Source of the DNA: an uncultured virus (IMG/VR IMGVR_UViG_3300027712_000027)
Taxonomy: Duplodnaviria > Heunggongvirae > Uroviricota > Caudoviricetes
Strand: one strand, 5' to 3'
Virus record (IMG/VR): IMGVR_UViG_3300027712_000027
Length of the DNA: 64,000 bases
A program made the translations under genes and the position numbers. Within the stretch, counting starts at the first letter, position 1, and the number at the start of each line of letters is the position of its first letter. Shown here one piece after another: positions 34,658 to 64,000 of the stretch. The notes under the pieces are model-generated. The model was not told the DNA's origin. It made no database searches and saw only the letters and a list, made by a program, of their open reading frames with translations.

Positions 34658-34734
34658 TGGCGGTCCCTGAGGGATTCGAACCCCCGACATACGGAGTAGA
34701 AATCCGTTGTTCTATCCAGCTGAACTAAGGAACC
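34658..34734 (-). tRNA. tRNA-Arg(UCU)
   Basis: Canonical cloverleaf; ACGGA-TTTCTAC-TCCGT anticodon arm; encoded CCA. Confidence 0.95.
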
Positions 34735-34957: not shown

Positions 34958-35161
34958 TTACTTCTTATCTGTAAAGTCTTTGATCTGTTCGGCAAGAGCA
35001 AAGATATCTTGCCGACTAGGATACTTTAAGGAAGAAAATCGTTTATTCTTTTCTTCTTTATCTTCACAATACTGAATTTCTGCAAAATTAGCCTGATACT
35101 CACCGATAAGCAAATCACGGGCAGCATGGAAATAGTTAAAACGCATTTCATACGGGTTCAT
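34958..35161 (-). CDS. Conserved small T4-like hypothetical protein
   Basis: MNPYEMRF...YPS..DI..LAE.IKDF; ACACAGGAG ribosome-binding site; GAGGGG hairpin downstream. Confidence 0.65.
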   Translation of the reverse strand: MNPYEMRFNYFHAARDLLIGEYQANFAEIQYCEDKEEKNKRFSSLKYPSRQDIFALAEQIKDFTDKK

Positions 35162-35206
35162 TTTTAGTCTCCTGTGTGTTTGTGCATTATGCACTGTGTG
35201 TTAATA

Positions 35207-35465
35207 GGTCCGTTCTGTTTCTAGGTGGAACCCATACCCAAGGTGATTACGCTGCTAGAGCGAATTCCTGTGCAAAGTTATCGTTTGCATTTATATCAGC
35301 CTTGGTCTACTCGTACCTTTACTATCAATAATCGAGCCTATTTCGCCCCCATCATATGTGGTCTGACTTCACAGACTGTAGAGTGAACTATCTCTAGCAC
35401 ATATGGTGGAGGCGTTGGGTACTGCCCCCAAGTCTTACTGATTTATTCTTTACGTCTCAACAACC
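35207..35465 (-). ncRNA. ssrA: Circularly permuted two-piece tmRNA (alphaproteobacterial type)
   Basis: Acceptor piece ending TTGGGGGCAGTACCCAACGCCTCCACCA (35404), 53-nt spacer, then coding piece starting GGGGGCGAAATAGGCTCGA (35350) with tag ANDNFAQEFALAA* at 35288-35247; outer ends approximate. Confidence 0.92.
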
Positions 35466-35474
35466 TTAGCATAG

Positions 35475-35508
35475 TATTTATTATACTACAAAAGTTTACA
35501 TTCGTCAA
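35475..35508 (-). promoter_or_regulatory. Dual early/late promoter for the tmRNA
   Basis: TTGACG-17-TATAAT overlapping TAAATA. Confidence 0.7.
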
Positions 35509-35740
35509 GTGTTTTCTTGATATAATCTTCAGCTTCAGCAACAGGCATGTAATACTTAAGAAGAATTTCCATAGCTTTTTTAAGAACACAATCTTGGATA
35601 AGATCTTCATGAAGATGCGGTGGAAGATCAGTTCGATTTTTCAATGAAGCGATATCTTTACAAATCAAAGTATAATCATCTTTAATTGTGGAAAGAACCA
35701 TCTCTTCTTTAACTTCTTGGGTAATCTTAATCATATACAT
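35486..35740 (-). CDS. Hypothetical protein
   Basis: 84-aa ORF coupled to the upstream gene. Confidence 0.55.
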   Translation of the reverse strand: MYMIKITQEVKEEMVLSTIKDDYTLICKDIASLKNRTDLPPHLHEDLIQDCVLKKAMEILLKYYMPVAEAEDYIKKTLDECKLL

Positions 35741-52758: not shown

Positions 52759-52832
52759 TGGGGAATAGTATAATGGTAGTACAGCGGACTTTGAATCCGT
52801 GAATCTTGGTTCGAGTCCAGGTTCCCCAGCCA
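52759..52832 (+). tRNA. tRNA-Gln(UUG)
   Basis: TGGGGAA/TTCCCCA acceptor; GCGGA-CTTTGAA-TCCGT anticodon arm; encoded CCA. Confidence 0.95.
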
Positions 52833-54618: not shown

Positions 54619-54670
54619 GCATCGCCTAATGGGATGCTATTTCAAACTCGCTTAATAGGAGAAAACTATG
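54619..54670 (+). promoter_or_regulatory. ROSE-like RNA thermometer in the hsp20 leader
   Basis: GCATC/GATGC hairpin, then CTCGCT-TAAT-AGGAG pairing the SD with a bulged G. Confidence 0.6.
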
Positions 54671-55117
54671 ACTGACATTTTTACATTTAATACATCTAAC
54701 ATCGACAAGTATTATGTTGGTGTTGATAAGATCGCAAAGAACCTTGCAAGAGTTCATGCTGCTGCCTGTAAGGCAATTCCCGGATATCCACCATATAATA
54801 TTATGAAGGTCGACGAAAACAAGTACGTCATTGAAATGGCTGTTGCTGGTTTCGCTAAACAGAACCTTGAAATCGAAGTTGCCAATAGTGTACTCACCAT
54901 TAAGGGTGGACTTACTGTTGATGATATGGCACAGGAATCTGTTGCTAATACACAGTACATTTATAAGGGTATTGCCGATCGTGCATTTACACGTAAGATG
55001 CAGTTGGCCGATACTGTTGTGGTCCAAAATGCAGAGCTTATCAATGGAATGCTTAGAGTATTTTTGGAAAACATTATTCCTGAAAGTCAAAAGCCCCAAA
55101 AGGTTAATATCAAGTAA
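54668..55117 (+). CDS. Small heat-shock protein (Hsp20/IbpA family)
   Basis: YPPYNI....NKY.IEMAVAGF; YKGIA.RAFTR..LAD; A.L.NGML. Confidence 0.95.
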   Translation: MTDIFTFNTSNIDKYYVGVDKIAKNLARVHAAACKAIPGYPPYNIMKVDENKYVIEMAVAGFAKQNLEIEVANSVLTIKGGLTVDDMAQESVANTQYIYKGIADRAFTRKMQLADTVVVQNAELINGMLRVFLENIIPESQKPQKVNIK

Positions 55118-56571: not shown

Positions 56572-59031
56572 ATGGCTTTTTATACAAATGTATTTCAACG
56601 TGGTGACAAAATTTATGTTCGTGGATTCGATAAGGGAACACGAACAAAGGAAGTAGTGGCATATAAGCCGTATATGTTTATCCATAAGCCAGAGGGTAAG
56701 TATCGTACTCTTGATGGTAAGCCAGTTGCAAAGCTCGACTTTGATGGTATTAAGGACGCCAAGGATTTCATTGAGCGTTATTCCGATGTCTCCAATATGG
56801 AGATTTATGGACTCACAACTTTCCCCTACCTTTATATTTTTGATACATTTAAGGGCGACATCAATTATGATCCGTCGCAGGTTAGCATTGGCACAATTGA
56901 TATTGAGTGTGCTGCTGACGAAGGATTTCCCGACATTCAAAAGGCAGATAAGCCTCTGACTGCGATTACTGTTCGTTGTCGGAAACGTAATTACGTATTT
57001 GGTTGTGGTGAGTTTTTCACTACCGATCCAAATACATATTATGTCAAGTGTAAAGATGAGTATGAGTTGATTCAGAAGTTTCTTCAGGCCTGGGAAGCTC
57101 TTGATCTTGATATTATCACCGGCTGGAATATTGAGTTTTTCGATATCCCATACTTGGTAAATCGTATTGTTAAACTGTTTAATGTTACAGAGGCCAAACG
57201 TCTTTCACCATGGCGTATTCTTGATGAAAAAACTATCGAGTTTCGTGGTAAAGAAAATCAGAGTTATGCACCTGCCGGCATCGCAGTTATGGATTACTAC
57301 CAGCTTTATCGTAAATTCAGTTTCGGTAATCAGGAGAGTTATAAGCTCGACTATATCGCTCAAATTGAACTCGGCGAGAAAAAGTTAGATTATTCCGAGT
57401 ATGGATCTTTGCTTGAGCTTTACCGTAATAATCATCAGAAGTTTATTGAATATAACATTCTCGATTGTGTTCTTGTTGAACGACTTGATGAGAAAATGAA
57501 GTTCATTGAACAGGTGATGGCTCTGGCATATGATGCCAAGGTAAATTATAACGATACCATGACTACGGTTCGTTCATGGGATGTCATTATCCATAATTAT
57601 CTGCTCGAACAAAATATCGTAATTCCTCAGTTTAAAAGCTCGAAAGAGCAGTTTGAATTGGTCGGCGGTCATGTTAAGGAAGTTAAGCCAGGATTGAGTA
57701 AGTGGGTTGTTTCTTTTGACTTGAACTCGCTGTATCCTCATCTTATCATGCAATATAATATCAGCCCGGAAACACTTGTTGGTAGAACTCAGTTTCCAAG
57801 TATTGATTATTTGCTAGAAGGTCACTGGGAATATCGTGACAGTTCGGTAGCGTATGCTGCCAATGGTTGCACTTATCGGAAAGATAAGCAAGGGTTTCTC
57901 CCAGCTCTTATGGAAAAGCTCTATAATGATCGAGTTGTTTATAAGAAAAAGATGATCGAGGCAAAGCAGCGTTATGAACTTACCAAAAGCAAAGACGACG
58001 AAATGCTTATTGCACGATACCATAATATGCAAATGGCTCGTAAAATTCAATTGAACTCGGCTTACGGTGCACTCGGCAATAGGTATTTCCGTTGGTTCAA
58101 TTTCAATAATGCCGAGGCGATTACTATGTCTGGTCAGCTTTCCATTCGTTGGATTGAAAAAAAAATGAATATCTTTATGAATAAGGTATGTAAAACAACT
58201 GATATTGATTATGTTATTGCGGCGGATACAGATTCGATTTATGTGACTTTTGAAAAGCTTATACCTGATGGTTCTAATGAACTCGACGCTGTCAATTTAA
58301 TTGATAAGTTTTGTGAGAGTAAAATACAGCATTATATTAACAGCTGTTATGACGAGCTAGCAGGTATGATGAATGCATATCAACAGAAAATGCAAATGAA
58401 GCGTGAAACCATTGCCAATAAAGGTATTTGGAAAGCGAAGAAAATGTATATTCTTAATGCCTGGAACGTTGAAGGTGTGCAGTATGATAAGCCAAAGCTG
58501 AAGATTCAGGGTATCGAGGCAGTTCGTTCATCAACTCCGCATGTTTGTCGTGAAAAGATTAAACAGGCTCTGACTATTATTATGAATCAAAATGAAAGCG
58601 ATCTTATCAAGTTTAACGAGAAATTTCGCGAAGAGTTTATGTCACTTCCTTTTGAAGATGTTGCTTTTCCCCGTGGTGTTAAAGGCATAAGTAAATATTC
58701 AGATAAAAATAGTATTTATGGTAAAGGAACTCCTATTCAGGTTCGTGGAGTTCTTCTATATAATCATTTGATCAAGCGTCATGGTATTGGTAACCTTGCA
58801 CCAATTCAAGATGGCGATAAGATTAAGTTTGTTTATTTGAAAACACCTAATCCTATTAATGAAACTGTTATCGCCGCAATAGATACTCTACCAAAAGAAT
58901 TTGGTTTAGATTCATATATCGATCGAGATACCCAGTTCAATAAGTCTTATCTTGAACCACTTCGTTCAATTGCGGATTGTATTGATTGGAAAATAGAACA
59001 ACTAGCAACATTGGAGGATTTCTTTGGCTAA
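56572..59031 (+). CDS. DNA polymerase, family B (gp43)
   Basis: DIE exonuclease motif; SFDLNSLYP; KIQLNSAYG; DTDS; KKMY; promoter at 56491-56518. Confidence 0.97.
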   Translation: MAFYTNVFQRGDKIYVRGFDKGTRTKEVVAYKPYMFIHKPEGKYRTLDGKPVAKLDFDGIKDAKDFIERYSDVSNMEIYGLTTFPYLYIFDTFKGDINYDPSQVSIGTIDIECAADEGFPDIQKADKPLTAITVRCRKRNYVFGCGEFFTTDPNTYYVKCKDEYELIQKFLQAWEALDLDIITGWNIEFFDIPYLVNRIVKLFNVTEAKRLSPWRILDEKTIEFRGKENQSYAPAGIAVMDYYQLYRKFSFGNQESYKLDYIAQIELGEKKLDYSEYGSLLELYRNNHQKFIEYNILDCVLVERLDEKMKFIEQVMALAYDAKVNYNDTMTTVRSWDVIIHNYLLEQNIVIPQFKSSKEQFELVGGHVKEVKPGLSKWVVSFDLNSLYPHLIMQYNISPETLVGRTQFPSIDYLLEGHWEYRDSSVAYAANGCTYRKDKQGFLPALMEKLYNDRVVYKKKMIEAKQRYELTKSKDDEMLIARYHNMQMARKIQLNSAYGALGNRYFRWFNFNNAEAITMSGQLSIRWIEKKMNIFMNKVCKTTDIDYVIAADTDSIYVTFEKLIPDGSNELDAVNLIDKFCESKIQHYINSCYDELAGMMNAYQQKMQMKRETIANKGIWKAKKMYILNAWNVEGVQYDKPKLKIQGIEAVRSSTPHVCREKIKQALTIIMNQNESDLIKFNEKFREEFMSLPFEDVAFPRGVKGISKYSDKNSIYGKGTPIQVRGVLLYNHLIKRHGIGNLAPIQDGDKIKFVYLKTPNPINETVIAAIDTLPKEFGLDSYIDRDTQFNKSYLEPLRSIADCIDWKIEQLATLEDFFG

Positions 59032-59250: not shown

Positions 59251-60294
59251 ATGTCACTTAAGGAAAAGCTTATCAAGAACAGTACCATCGATTTGACAGC
59301 AAGCTTGCTTGACTCGAAAATTTTCACCAAGAAAGATATGATTCCCACATCTGTTCCAATGATTAACGTTGCTTTGTCCGGCTCTGTTGATGGTGGTATT
59401 ACTCCTGGTCTTACTATGTTGGCCGGTCCATCAAAACACTTTAAGTCAGGTTTCTCGCTCCTGTTAGCAGCTGCCTTTCTAAAGAAGTATAAGGATGGTA
59501 TTATCCTTTTCTATGACTCTGAGTTTGGTACTCCTCAGTCATACTTTACTACTTTCGGTATTGATCTTGAATCTGTTGTTCATACTCCTATTACTGACGT
59601 TGAAGAACTGAAGTTTGATATTATGACACAGTTGAAGAGCATTGATCGTGGTGACCATGTTATGATTTTGGTTGACTCGATTGGTAACTTGGCTTCGAAA
59701 AAAGAAATTGAAGATGCGCTGAATGAAAAGTCAGTTGCGGATATGACTCGTGCCAAGCAGCTTAAGTCTCTATTCCGTATGATTACACCTCATCTTTCGC
59801 TTAAAAACATTCCAATGGTTGCTATCAATCATACCTATATGGAAATTGGTATGTTCCCCAAAGCTATCGTCAGTGGTGGTACTGGTGCATATTATGGTGC
59901 TGATAATATCTGGATTATCGGTCGTCAGCAAGATAAGGATGGTACTGAAATTGCCGGATATCATTTCGTTATTAATGTTGAGAAGTCTCGTTTTGTTAAA
60001 GAAAAGTCAAAAATTCCGATTACGGTTTCATTTGATGGTGGTATTAATCGTTGGTCTGGTCTTCTGGATGTGGCGATTGAAGGTAACTACATTGTTAAGC
60101 CAAAGGTTGGTTGGTATGCTACGGTTGATAAGGAAACTGGTGAAGTACGTCAGCCAAGCAAGAGAGCCGCTGATATTGTGGACAATAAAGAGTTTTGGAT
60201 GGATATGTTCAAAAACACTGATTTTGCCCAGTACATCGAAAGTAAGTACAAGATGGCGATGGGTCCTATAATGGATAATGACGATGAAGAATAA
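59251..60294 (+). CDS. uvsX: RecA-like recombinase UvsX
   Basis: AGPSKHFKS; FYDSEFG; DSIGNLASKKE; VADMTRAK. Confidence 0.95.
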   Translation: MSLKEKLIKNSTIDLTASLLDSKIFTKKDMIPTSVPMINVALSGSVDGGITPGLTMLAGPSKHFKSGFSLLLAAAFLKKYKDGIILFYDSEFGTPQSYFTTFGIDLESVVHTPITDVEELKFDIMTQLKSIDRGDHVMILVDSIGNLASKKEIEDALNEKSVADMTRAKQLKSLFRMITPHLSLKNIPMVAINHTYMEIGMFPKAIVSGGTGAYYGADNIWIIGRQQDKDGTEIAGYHFVINVEKSRFVKEKSKIPITVSFDGGINRWSGLLDVAIEGNYIVKPKVGWYATVDKETGEVRQPSKRAADIVDNKEFWMDMFKNTDFAQYIESKYKMAMGPIMDNDDEE

Positions 60295-60497: not shown

Positions 60498-61904
60498 ATG
60501 GCAATCGAACGGACCATTTTTAGCAATTTATTATACAATGAAGATTATGGTCGTAAAGTTATTCCTTTTCTTAAGGAAGAATATTTCACGGATTATTGTG
60601 ATAAAGTCGTTTTCGAACTCATCAGTGAATACGTAAAGAAATATAATGCATTCCCATCTAAGGAAGCTATGGCCATTGACCTAACTAACAAGAGTGGTTT
60701 GGGTGAGGAAAGTTTTCGAAATATTGCAGATACTATTTCTAAATTTGATCGCGATGAAGATACTAAAATCGAGTGGTTGCTTGATCAAACTGAAAAGTTT
60801 TGTCAGGAAAAAGCCGTTTATAATGCTATCATGTCATCAATTCAAATCCTTGATGATAAAACTGGTAAAACTTCCAAGGGTGGTATTCCTCAAATTTTGA
60901 GCGACGCTCTTGGTGTATCTTTTGATACACATATCGGCCATGACTTTCTTGAAGATGCCGAGGCTCGTTTTGAGTTTTATCATATGAAGGAATCACGTGT
61001 TCCTTTTGATATTGAATATATGAATAAGATCACACAGGGCGGCTTGCCTAAAAAGACATTGAATATCGCTCTTGCCGGTACTGGTGTTGGTAAGTCTCTC
61101 TTTATGTGTCACTGTGCTGCTGCTAATATGACAGCTGGTCTGAATGTTCTTTATATTACGCTAGAAATGGCCGAAGAAAAGATCGCAGAACGTATTGATG
61201 CTAATTTGCTGAATACTCCGGTACAAGAGCTTATCAGTATGCCCAAGGAAATGTATGATAATAAAGTTGCTCGTATCCGTAAAAAAACTACTGGTAAAAT
61301 TATTATCAAGGAATATCCGACCACATGCGCTGGGTCGGCAAACTTTCGCCATCTTCTAAATGAGTTGAAGCTCAAGAAAAATTTCGTTCCGGACATCATA
61401 TATATTGATTACCTGAACATTTGTATGTCATCGAGGTTAAAACATGGAACCGGAGTCAATTCTTATACCCTTGTCAAAACGATCGCAGAAGAACTACGAG
61501 GACTTGCAGTGGAGTTCAATGTTCCTGTCGTCTCTGCGACTCAAACAACTCGAAGCGGATATTCGAACAGCGACGTGGGACTGGAAGATACAGCAGAATC
61601 CTTTGGACTCCCGGCCACAGCTGATTTTATGTTTGCACTCGTCACGTCCGAAGAACTGGAAGAACTCAATCAAATTATGGTTAAGCAGCTCAAGAATCGC
61701 TATAATGATCCAGGGCTTCATCGTCGCTTTGTTGTTGGTGTGGATCGCAGCAAGATGCGGCTTTACGATGTAGAACAATCAGCACAGGATGAGCTTATGG
61801 ACGACAAGCCTGTGATGGATAAGGGAAAGTTCATGTCCGAAGATATGGAACGTAATATGCCCCGTAAGAAGTTTGATAAAGGAAAGTTTGAGGGCTTCAA
61901 GTGA
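60498..61904 (+). CDS. Replicative DNA helicase gp41 (DnaB-like)
   Basis: LAGTGVGKS; YITLEMAEE; IDYLN; SATQTTR; ESFGLPATAD; KQLKNRY. Confidence 0.96.
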   Translation: MAIERTIFSNLLYNEDYGRKVIPFLKEEYFTDYCDKVVFELISEYVKKYNAFPSKEAMAIDLTNKSGLGEESFRNIADTISKFDRDEDTKIEWLLDQTEKFCQEKAVYNAIMSSIQILDDKTGKTSKGGIPQILSDALGVSFDTHIGHDFLEDAEARFEFYHMKESRVPFDIEYMNKITQGGLPKKTLNIALAGTGVGKSLFMCHCAAANMTAGLNVLYITLEMAEEKIAERIDANLLNTPVQELISMPKEMYDNKVARIRKKTTGKIIIKEYPTTCAGSANFRHLLNELKLKKNFVPDIIYIDYLNICMSSRLKHGTGVNSYTLVKTIAEELRGLAVEFNVPVVSATQTTRSGYSNSDVGLEDTAESFGLPATADFMFALVTSEELEELNQIMVKQLKNRYNDPGLHRRFVVGVDRSKMRLYDVEQSAQDELMDDKPVMDKGKFMSEDMERNMPRKKFDKGKFEGFK

Positions 61905-61962
61905 AAATAGTTGTTGACTTTTGTTATCAACTGGGGTATAATATGTTTTTGGATAGGAGCTT

Positions 61963-62205
61963 TTGATGAAGCGTGAAATTGATAACGAGACGCTAATGGT
62001 TCATCTTCAAAATTATATGTGTCAAGATCACATTCGACTCGTTGACAATCAACTGGGAGAAAGCTTGATTAATCCTACTTATTTGTTTAAACTTTGTATG
62101 AATGTTATTGAACTACAAACCCAAGAACTAACTATTCTTCGTGATCAAAATCGAGATTATCAAAATGAATTGCGTTTTGTTGGACGTCGTTTGGAGGCTT
62201 TATGA
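61963..62205 (+). CDS. Hypothetical protein
   Basis: AGGAG ribosome-binding site; promoter TTGACT-17-TATAAT at 61914-61942. Confidence 0.6.
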   Translation: MMKREIDNETLMVHLQNYMCQDHIRLVDNQLGESLINPTYLFKLCMNVIELQTQELTILRDQNRDYQNELRFVGRRLEAL

Positions 62206-62384
62206 ATTATAAAATTGTCGAAAAAGATAAGAAGTTTTTGGTCATTGAAACTAAAACTGATCAGATCATTGATCAGTATAACACTCGTCAAGAGGCAAAA
62301 GAACGGCTACGGTTTCTAAATTTAGGTGGCGCTTTTGATGGATTTTCTCCATCTTTTATTCTAAAAAAGAATTTTTTATACTGA
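62202..62384 (+). CDS. Conserved small T4-like hypothetical protein
   Basis: FLNLGGAFDGFSP.FIL. Confidence 0.65.
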   Translation: MNYKIVEKDKKFLVIETKTDQIIDQYNTRQEAKERLRFLNLGGAFDGFSPSFILKKNFLY

Positions 62385-62414
62385 AAAAGTTGAACAGCTG
62401 ACTAAATAATATAT

Positions 62415-62518
62415 ACGATTAAAATATGTATTGCGCACAGTCGCAAGAGGCACGAGTCCAGGAGACACGGAATAGTTGGGAGCAAATGGTGGGGTTCCAC
62501 CCAACCATATTTTATCGT
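62415..62518 (+). ncRNA. Candidate structured late ncRNA
   Basis: Lies between TAAATA (62403) and a terminator; 13-bp closing stem; internal hairpins; no ORF or RBS. Confidence 0.6.
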
Positions 62519-62521
62519 TAC

Positions 62522-62551
62522 AGGCGGGTCCGAAAGGGCTCGCCTTTTTTT
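62522..62551 (+). terminator. Intrinsic terminator
   Basis: AGGCGGGTCC-GAAA-GGGCTCGCCT-TTTTTT. Confidence 0.9.
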
Positions 62552-62597
62552 ATGGTTTAAGTTTAGATAAATACTTAAAATTATTCGGAGATTTTTC

Positions 62598-64000
62598 ATG
62601 CTATCATTCAATACTTTCTGTATCATAAATTATATCCCATCAAGTTATGGCGACATAACAGAAGAATTGAATGATGCACAAAAAGCTGCTGTTGATAAAT
62701 GGACAAAAACAAATCGTGCACAAGAAATATCAAGTCATGTAATTCCCCCAGGACAAGATAGAATTTCAATACCATTGGGCGGTGGCGAAGCTGATACAGC
62801 AGTTCCACACCCAGATGTTCAACAACATCTTGAAAATAATGGATATAAGATATCTGATTATAAAGCAGGACTTGTACAGGATCCGAAATACCCAAATAGA
62901 TCTTTAAAAATTGGTGGTGTACTTCAGAAAACTGGTGCATCTCCAAATCTTATGAAAACATATCAAAACGATCCTGCCAGAAGCGCATCTAGAGTTGGTA
63001 GCGGTGGTTTGCATGTAGTTATTTCACGTCATCCACATGATGTTGCTGGTATGTCAACAAATCAAGGTTGGAGATCATGCATGGCTTTGGATCCAAGAGG
63101 TAGAGTAGGAAACGGTAATGATGGCTTTGATACTTTGGATAATGCTGGTCAATTTAGTCATTATCTTAAAGCTGATGTTCAGCATGGAACTCATGTTGCA
63201 TACCTTGCTCATGCTGATGATCCAGAGGCTAAAAATCCAATAGCAAGAATTGCTCTTAAACCATTCGAACCTGAAGATAAAACAAAATCAACTATTTTAA
63301 GCCCCGAAGAAAAAATATATGGTACTTCGGATAATATATTTGGAGATACAGTTAGAAAATGGGCTGCAACTAATTTTCCTCCAGACCCAAATACTGTATA
63401 CAATAAAAATCCAAAATTATATGATGATGATAAAAGAAGTAGTATCGCATCATCACCTGACCCATTGTTAAATTCTAAAAATTCAATAACTAGAGCAAAA
63501 GCTTTTGATCCAAATCAAGAGGGTGTTACCGCAAATCATATATCAAGAGGTCTTAAAGATAAAGATAGAAAGGTCAGATTGGCTGCTATTACACATGCTA
63601 ATGCGAATCAAGAACATATTGCCACAGCTTTAAAAGATGATGATGGTGGCGTTGTCACAGCCGCAATACAACATCGTAATGCATCTGCAGAGCAAGTTAA
63701 TTTTATTGTGGATCATCCAAATCCACAAGCTAAATTGGCTGTGGCTAAAAATCCTAATTTAACTTCAGATCAAATTAGTAGATTATTAAAAGATAAAACT
63801 AAAGGTGATTACGGTGATTTAATTGTGGCACAGGCAGCAGCTGAACATCCGAATTTAAATTCGGATCATATCAGTTATATATTAAAAACAAAAAATTCAA
63901 AACTTAAACATATTGCTCTGCAACATCGTAATGTTTCAGAAGATAATATTAATGAAGCGTTGCAAGATACAGATTATGTTACTAGAGCTACCGCCATACA
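62598..64000 (+). CDS. Late protein with C-terminal HEAT/LRV-like repeats (3'-truncated by the window; absent from the ORF track)
   Basis: Open frame MLSFNTF...ITEELNDAQK...ISRHPHDVAGMST..GWRSCM...LKDKDRKVRLAAITH...; TAAATA at 62568 and GGAG ribosome-binding site. Confidence 0.8.
   Translation, partial: MLSFNTFCIINYIPSSYGDITEELNDAQKAAVDKWTKTNRAQEISSHVIPPGQDRISIPLGGGEADTAVPHPDVQQHLENNGYKISDYKAGLVQDPKYPNRSLKIGGVLQKTGASPNLMKTYQNDPARSASRVGSGGLHVVISRHPHDVAGMSTNQGWRSCMALDPRGRVGNGNDGFDTLDNAGQFSHYLKADVQHGTHVAYLAHADDPEAKNPIARIALKPFEPEDKTKSTILSPEEKIYGTSDNIFGDTVRKWAATNFPPDPNTVYNKNPKLYDDDKRSSIASSPDPLLNSKNSITRAKAFDPNQEGVTANHISRGLKDKDRKVRLAAITHANANQEHIATALKDDDGGVVTAAIQHRNASAEQVNFIVDHPNPQAKLAVAKNPNLTSDQISRLLKDKTKGDYGDLIVAQAAAEHPNLNSDHISYILKTKNSKLKHIALQHRNVSEDNINEALQDTDYVTRATAI

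Follow-up and report, generated by a model that had tools for sequence, protein, structure and literature searches.

What does the short GC-rich island encode that lies shortly 3' of the gp41-type helicase gene in an uncultured T4-like myovirus? The virus is IMG/VR record IMGVR_UViG_3300027712_000027, of which one stretch of 64,000 nucleotides (nt), hereafter the window, was analysed. An earlier reading of the letters made without database searches (the sequence-only reading) had proposed that a stand-alone late transcription unit at this place produces a structured phage small RNA of unknown class. Homologues, compensatory covariation, promoter motif, terminator and orientation support this proposal, and we conclude with high confidence that positions 62401-62551 form a real, free-standing structured RNA gene. 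As the best explanation of the whole we favour, by a modest balance of probability, a folded late RNA of ~135 nt that would act in trans by binding a conserved partner.

The unit and its borders comprise four elements:

62401-62408, plus strand: T4-type late promoter octamer ACTAAATA, with the core TAAATA at 62403-62408.
62415-62551, plus strand: predicted RNA of ~135 nt, probably starting near 62414-62416 and ending with the U tract.
62523-62551, plus strand: intrinsic terminator with the stem 62523-31/62536-44, a GAAA loop and a U tract at 62545-51 (seven U).
62566-62573, plus strand: second late promoter, GATAAATA (TAAATA at 62568-62573), which lies outside the RNA and serves the next gene (ATG 62598).

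Every sequence feature named in the sequence-only reading is present where it had been placed; late promoter, GC-rich island, strong terminator and the separate late promoter of the next gene are thus borne out. GC content reaches 0.53 in 62450-62549 compared with 0.24-0.35 in the flanks, and the plus strand folds with a minimum free energy of -44.2 kcal/mol (z = -3.4 versus shuffles). A single sequence proves little, and conservation was therefore taken as the test. Far from lacking conservation in related phages, a result that would have counted against the sequence-only reading, the element has 76 distinct homologues with strong compensatory covariation.

Homologues were collected by two routes. 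With gp41 as anchor, the best 80 of 600 viral-contig relatives were taken as loci, and nhmmer with the window element identified 17 of them at E < 0.01. Beginning from a first covariance model of three sequences and a hand-drawn structure, covariance search yielded 34 matches in 82 sources around gp41 (all E <= 0.0024), all positioned right past gp41, 25 of them in the orientation of gp41 and 9 in the reverse one. Independently of gp41, a core scan of the viral collection (GGAANAG, 8-20 bases, GGTGGGGTTCC) returned at least 119 stretches, of which 80 were taken; 67 of these 80 loci contain the complete RNA. The combined set comprises 76 distinct sequences in uncultured viral contigs, hence at least 76 homologues. 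In the window itself, covariance models match 62415-62550 with 151.5 bits (R1) and 120.3 bits (R2), the only match in the 64 kb. The RNA is single-copy: each of five larger phage records, among them a 99%-complete one, harbors one strong copy and otherwise 20-22-bit noise.

Blastn of the window element and two divergent members against GenBank phages (50,697 records) detected no homologue. The closest GenBank phage, whose uvsX and gp41 are only ~68% identical to those of the window, lacks the RNA element, and the nearest record (G001), an 18%-complete fragment, gave no match. A scan of 185,579 bacterial and archaeal species genomes with a 21-base core pattern returned at least 120 stretches; among the 80 taken, one is a real copy and there is no sign of a cellular counterpart. 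This complete copy (L228:1010-1160, minus strand, 78.6 bits; next best 22.5 bits) resides on a 1,756-bp contig of a metagenome-assembled genome (MAG) assigned to Pseudobdellovibrionaceae, probably a phage fragment mis-binned into that MAG.

The borders of the unit are conserved along with it. In 75 of 76 homologues TAAATA is present no more than 40 nt upstream, as the full TATAAATA in 52 and as [AG]CTAAATA in 17 including the window, and the distance from the end of TAAATA to the first pair of the closing helix is confined to 5-16 nt in 73/75, as expected of a T4-type late element. Transcripts of T4 late promoters start a few bases downstream of the motif. The window octamer agrees with that of T4 at 6/8 positions; the T4 motif is TATAAATA as quoted in PMC3037559, with which the upstream elements of the family agree. 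A terminator follows the RNA in all 76 homologues; in the window its hairpin (62523-62544) was scored as 10 pairs, 7 of them G-C. A further TAAATA lies within 30 nt past the terminator in 48 of the 74 homologues with enough flank. About 10-25 nt 5' of the late promoter, right past the stop codon of the preceding small open reading frame (ORF), a conserved AAAAAGTYG element was observed (window 62385-62395), found at the same position in loci L007, L009, L011, L014, L020, L021 and L057.

From the alignment, the RNA is predicted to fold as a four-helix junction in which P1 closes the structure, P2 and P3 are variable hairpins, and P4 carries a hinge bulge and an outer helix, P4b. Its parts are listed below with their pairing across the 76 sequences; the gp41-anchored set of 30 distinct sequences is called the unbiased set:

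62421-62428, plus strand: 5' strand of P1, pairing with 62506-62513 (8 pairs, all with two-sided changes; 93.6% paired).
62431-62446, plus strand: P2 hairpin, UUGCG-CACAGU-CGCAA (5 pairs, all with two-sided changes; 94.2% paired).
62447-62452, plus strand: junction strand J2/3, GAGGCA, with a near-invariant GGCA at 62449-62452.
62456-62466, plus strand: P3 hairpin, GUC-CAGGA-GAC (inner 3 pairs covary, 86.5% paired; loop size varies among phages).
62469-62474, plus strand: junction strand J3/4, GGAAUA, with an invariant GGAA.
62475-62505, plus strand: P4 arm, consisting of P4a, hinge bulge, P4b and loop.
62475-80/62500-05: P4a, GUUGGG/CCCAAC (100% paired; 6/6 pairs covary).
62481-86: 5' hinge bulge AGCAAA, 5-7 nt long and A-rich in the family.
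62487-89/62497-99: P4b, UGG/CCA (99.1% paired; 3/3 pairs covary).
62490-96: 7-nt loop UGGGGUU (75-76 of 76 at each position; 28/30 in the unbiased set).

The 3' strand of P4 runs into that of P1 without a linker. Across the 76-sequence alignment, 93.9% of cells hold standard pairs compared with 61.0% after shuffling, and 35 of the 36 pairs vary at both partners. The covariation score amounts to 0.854 versus 0.222 for shuffled alignments, none of 500 shuffles reaching 0.854, and drops to 0.065-0.110 when the registers are slid by 1-3 columns. Ranking all column pairs by mutual information with average product correction (MI-APC) places helix pairs in all of the top 27 positions (P1, P2, inner P3, P4a, P4b and terminator). 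RNAalifold on a plain MAFFT alignment likewise regains, with compensatory changes, P4a, P4b and the terminator. The terminator stem covaries in 9/9 pairs (99.6% paired). The two outer P3 pairs (62453-54/62468-69) were rejected, being paired in 49.6% only.

These data refine the helices first drawn by eye. The TTGCG/CGCAA hairpin (62431-62435/62442-62446) and the GTTGGG/CCCAAC helix (62475-62480/62500-62505) of the sequence-only reading covary as P2 and P4a, respectively. Of its closing helix, ACGAT-T-AAAATATG (62415-62428) with CATATTTT-ATCGT (62506-62518), the inner 8 bp are conserved as P1, whereas the outer ACGAT/ATCGT extension (62415-62419 with 62514-62518) is specific to this phage. Two further proposals have to be given up. 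GGTGG-GGTT-CCACC, thought to compete with GTTGGG/CCCAAC, is supported in its inner 3 bp only, and these coexist with the 6-bp helix and stack on it. For the suggested GGAA/TTCC pseudoknot, the CC of TTCC instead covaries with the GG of P4b (CG/CG, AG/CU, AC/GU), while GGAA stays invariant. Mutual information detected no additional pseudoknots, a method that is blind to invariant positions. In distant members, which lie on the strand opposite to gp41 (L048, L056, L062-L064, L068, L069, L078 and L080), an extra small hairpin replaces the P4 hinge, yielding a three-way junction within P4; their P4b reads CCG/CGG, CAG/CUG or CAC/GUG, with UGGGGUU unchanged.

Sequence invariance is limited to GGCA, GGAA and UGGGGUU; all helices vary freely, and the sequence of the P2 loop is not conserved either. 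By position, GGCA is kept in 76, 74, 75 and 71 of the 76 sequences and GGAA in 75, 76, 75 and 76, where 61 of the 76 came from the scan requiring GGAANAG and GGTGGGGTTCC. Where no retrieval pattern demanded it, GGCA is retained in 28 of 30 distinct sequences, and GGAA in 30/30 of the unbiased set, in which all three elements occur together in 28/30. The two outliers, one of which is a weak 25-bit match, lack both UGGGGUU and GGCA.

Freely varying helices, variable P2 and P3 loops and three short, invariant, purine-rich elements are seen together, as would be expected of an RNA whose tertiary structure forms a pocket or surface that receives a constant partner. In the reading that we favour, the late-promoter machinery of the phage would produce a discrete, stable RNA of ~135 nt late in infection, and this RNA would act in trans as a folded molecule, through its shape. 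The GGCA and GGAA junction strands and the UGGGGUU loop on the hinged P4b arm would come together as a pre-organised surface. The surface would then bind a conserved partner, either a protein (of the host, or the 60-amino-acid (aa) phage protein encoded next to the RNA) or a small ligand. Such a mode of action would involve neither antisense pairing nor cis control of the downstream gene.

A base-pairing regulatory small RNA (sRNA) is an alternative, with UGGGGUU, GGAAUAG and GAGGCA serving as seeds for a conserved mRNA or stable RNA of host or phage, and with terminator and U tail forming a chaperone-binding module. The layout found here, namely an own promoter motif and a rho-independent terminator with a tail of 4-7 U, is the usual one of sRNAs, and the invariant nucleotides fall in regions drawn unpaired. 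However, these seeds would lie buried in a compact junction, and the pattern of invariance appears unlike that expected of a seed-pairing sRNA. AACCCCA, the complement of the loop, has no site in the 64-kb window. ORF start regions taken from three phages (214, 143 and 97 ORFs) showed no better, in fact weaker, pairing to the three conserved strands than random genomic 50-mers, and the three phages share no top antisense target. As far as testable, the RNA is thus not visibly antisense to the phage, judging from these sequence comparisons, and we regard a base-pairing sRNA as unlikely.

A different explanation places the function in cis: a leader of the riboswitch or attenuator type that governs read-through of the terminator into the downstream late gene. 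The window does display the matching order, in that a covarying, aptamer-type conserved junction domain is followed by a terminator and by a gene on the same strand. Yet an antiterminator is missing. Over the 76 sequences, duplexes between the aptamer and the 5' arm of the terminator (-7.5 kcal/mol) are significantly weaker than shuffled ones (-8.3 kcal/mol; p ~4e-7), those with the 3' arm (-9.16 kcal/mol) equal their shuffled counterparts (-9.15 kcal/mol), and no aptamer-terminator column pair is found among the top mutual-information pairs. Linker length varies, the separate late promoter stands between terminator and gene in the 48 of 74 homologues given above, and in 9/34 loci the unit is aimed at the 3' end of gp41. 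Moreover, the genes downstream of the RNA belong to several unrelated families. A terminator riboswitch was rejected on these grounds, the terminator being regarded as constitutive, and a cis-acting leader of any kind is largely refuted and in our view very unlikely.

The downstream gene of the window itself (62598-64000, plus strand) encodes more than 467 aa, continuing beyond the window; it has no PHROG match, and its C-terminal half gave only sub-threshold LRV and HEAT repeat matches. Another late gene recurs downstream of the RNA (e.g. in L106, L157, L131, L082, L138, L008 and L011); its product starts with M-x-x-F and contains an N-terminal FD(M/I)DETLFAHD, a motif which we take to recall the DxDxT signature of HAD-type phosphatases.

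In three loci (L023:4472-4570, L027:4472-4570 and L028:3213-3310) the small ORF is followed by TATAAATA and a homologue of the downstream gene of the window (MLSFKEY...), so that the two genes are the same but exactly the promoter-RNA-terminator cassette between them is missing. Judging from the arrangement of these loci, the cassette may have been gained or lost when the late promoters on its two sides recombined. Taken together with the frequent second TAAATA and the varied downstream genes, these loci lead us to view the unit as a cassette between two late promoters, which apparently can be lost and, in 9/34 loci, inverted. Inversion also bears on an account in which the element merely finishes the upstream replication operon, as a 3' module of stabilising structure and terminator that has no RNA function of its own. 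The element does end the run of polymerase, uvsX, gp41 and small ORFs, and past those genes no strong terminator comes before its own. Where the RNA is inverted, however, it cannot be the 3' end of the operon; furthermore, invariant junction and loop nucleotides in a four-helix fold far exceed the needs of a terminator, and the promoter motif of the unit is conserved in nearly all homologues. We consider this account hardly tenable.

Membership in a known RNA class was not detected. As the sequence-only reading had proposed, the element was compared with Rfam. Rfam 15 (4227 models) at gathering thresholds identified only a transfer-messenger RNA (tmRNA) and two tRNAs elsewhere in the window; at E <= 10 on 62330-62620 (291 bases) nothing matched the junction domain, and at E <= 1 nothing matched the element in 20 homologous loci. 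Weak overlaps remained at chance level, with Y_RNA on the terminator at 15 bits (gathering score 38) and rRNA at 12 bits. A tRNA or tRNA-like element was rejected: ARAGORN places three genes elsewhere and none here, and the Rfam tRNA model has no match at this position; the UGGGGUU loop does not fit the consensus of a T-loop or anticodon loop. A small protein-coding gene was likewise rejected. The sequence-only reading had seen no plus-strand ORF, which is incorrect inasmuch as a 44-aa ATG ORF spans 62426-62560, though without conservation. Among the 76 homologues the longest ATG ORF has a median length of 14 aa, eight have none, and homologue length differences spread evenly modulo 3 (25/25/26).

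An RNA that cleaves itself or has another catalytic activity, its active site formed by the invariant nucleotides of the junction, would share with small ribozymes the compact multi-helix junction containing few invariant purines. Against it, no ribozyme family of Rfam 15 matched even at E <= 10, no conserved candidate cleavage context was noticed, and the neighbourhood presents no need for RNA processing; catalysis is accordingly rated as very improbable.

As a candidate partner we analysed the protein encoded directly upstream:

62202-62384, plus strand: small ORF of 60 aa with the motif LN-L-GGGFDGWTPxF near its C-terminus, not part of the RNA.

A family of 45 sequences was assembled for this protein; members measure 50-108 aa and share invariant E16, N40, G42, P50 and F52, and 63 further distinct ORFs were found in L001-L160. 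AlphaFold2 models the 60-aa protein with three strands and one helix (predicted local distance difference test score, pLDDT, 84). No Pfam or PHROGs family was identified, a sequence profile search of the PDB was uninformative (best E 0.021), and a word-indexed homologue search returned 6 close relatives, all annotated as "hypothetical". The RNA might be the RNA subunit of a small ribonucleoprotein (RNP), loop and junction being the binding site of this conserved and confidently modelled small fold. In line with this idea, 32 of the 35 RNA-positive sources contain the protein motif, beside the RNA, compared with 5 of 47 RNA-negative ones, and adjacency persists in five loci with inverted RNA (L062, L063, L064, L068 and L080). 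The association is not strict, however: three loci with the protein are those that exactly lack the RNA cassette, and in three RNA-positive loci no protein of this family was seen nearby. Co-occurrence also tracks phage relatedness, because the RNA-positive loci are the closest gp41 relatives. In addition, the protein gene belongs to the upstream replication-gene operon rather than standing behind the late promoter, and its fold has no RNA-binding relative. The 60-aa protein is a lead for the RNA partner, not evidence, and an RNP of the two is doubtful.

A variant of binding by shape would be a late decoy or sponge, in other words a natural aptamer whose pocket, built from the loop and the G-rich junction (GG + GG + GGGG), ties up a factor of the host or a small signalling molecule. 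An irregular G-rich core is conceivable, and such an RNA would act as infection nears its end, either by itself or in a small RNP together with the 60-aa protein. We put this forward as a rather improbable specification.

Several points weigh against a trans-acting folded late RNA with a conserved partner, the reading preferred here. TATAAATA is not enriched in the window (6 found versus 9.2 expected), and the putative promoter is therefore called by motif and conserved position only. Four contigs of a single metatranscriptome run (share of words 0.06) align with parts of gp41 (85-99% likeness) without touching 61909-64000, so that this run covers gp41 of relatives only. The alignments were fitted to the structure of the model, by which structure is favoured; the RNAalifold/MAFFT and MI-APC checks are less dependent on that fitting. 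Retrieval of most sequences by the core pattern makes the invariance of GGAA and of the loop partly one of construction. Regarding the proposed partner, linkage between protein and RNA may be confounded by shared ancestry, and Foldseek against the PDB matched its modelled fold to nothing informative (best E about 1). Finally, the target comparisons covered phage sequences, and an antisense role against host RNAs is conceivable.

Several described systems resemble the RNA in part. Comparative genomics has revealed orphan classes of structured noncoding RNAs (ncRNAs), some of them in phages or prophages, such as GOLLD, ROOL, raiA and OLE. Like these, the RNA combines a complex covarying fold, conserved nucleotides in junctions and loops, and a free-standing gene; unlike these, it is much smaller (~135 nt), is preceded by a late-promoter motif and has so far been seen only in a clade of lytic T4-like phages. 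The comparison was made by Rfam scan only, without a match. SAM-I is a four-way-junction riboswitch aptamer followed by an intrinsic terminator. The RNA resembles it in the four-helix junction with invariant junction nucleotides, the closing P1 and a terminator few bases downstream, but differs in lacking antiterminator pairing and a constant downstream gene family, in having one promoter directly upstream and another past the terminator, and in occurring in either orientation.

We know of no use of antitermination in T4-type late transcription. StxS of Stx phages (PMC7547250) is an example from lambdoid phages, a short late-promoter RNA that is ended by tR' and acts in trans. Both are short RNAs from a phage late promoter with a terminator directly downstream, but StxS is described there as a by-product of late-operon antitermination, whereas in our case a separate promoter precedes the next gene and the fold is elaborate and conserved. 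T4-like cyanophages carry, according to PMC9602691, the antisense RNA CfrI as well as PhotoRC-II, wcaG and a glutamine riboswitch. Our RNA too is carried by aquatic T4-like phages; the cyanophage ncRNAs are antisense RNAs or cis leaders of metabolic genes in that account, unlike the free-standing, late-promoter type found here. PhotoRC-II and wcaG, like the riboswitch for glutamine, are Rfam families, none of which matched. Fremin, Bhatt and Kyrpides (2023; PMC10690425) report 8,495 anonymous covarying DNA-virus candidates from IMG/VR, 1,241 of them with a predicted terminator. They represent the same kind of object from the same data source, and the RNA family may be among them. We found no description of this RNA in the full-text literature, with the readable tables of PMC10690425 holding no sequences and its alignments lying outside the comparison.

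The surroundings of the unit are those of a T4-like myovirus, with genes named by PHROGs profiles that include baseplate wedge and hub, a gp32-like single-stranded DNA-binding protein and the gp59 helicase loader. Upstream of the RNA and elsewhere, the window contains:

56572-59028: gp43 DNA polymerase (PHROGs profile).
59251-60294: UvsX (PHROGs profile).
60498-61904: gp41-type helicase (PHROGs profile).
61914-61942, plus strand: near-consensus sigma-70-type promoter TTGACT-17 nt-TATAAT (11/12 positions), directly past the gp41 stop codon.
61963-62205 and 62202-62384: two small ORFs between gp41 and the RNA unit.
35156-35512, minus strand: tmRNA gene.
34658-34734, minus strand, and 52759-52832, plus strand: two tRNA genes.

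The sigma-70-type promoter probably drives the two small ORFs. A late sigma factor was not among the scanned products (the 46 larger ORFs of the window), no search aimed at gp55 or gp33 having been made. The tmRNA gene is of the two-piece (permuted), alpha-proteobacterial type (111.7 bits) and specifies the tag peptide ANDNFAQEFALAA; as the tmRNA is alpha-type, it hints at an alphaproteobacterial host. The tRNA genes are those for tRNA-Arg(TCT) and tRNA-Gln(TTG). An Hsp20-type small heat-shock protein is encoded at 54668-55114 on the plus strand (PHROG 432, E = 3e-34).

Very few small RNAs of phages are known to have a fold that is both complex and conserved, and the T4-like group comprises the best-studied lytic phages. 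An RNA present in dozens of uncultured aquatic T4-like phages, with a conserved four-helix junction, a late promoter motif and a cassette that appears to be gained, lost and inverted, is a tractable candidate for a new RNA function. Its three short invariant elements, set among freely covarying helices, offer handles for mutagenesis, probing and pull-downs. If the RNA binds a host factor or metabolite, it would add RNA to the tools by which phages take over or disarm the cell, and if it acts as a decoy, it would constitute a new class of phage RNA that acts on the host by shape and not by base pairing.

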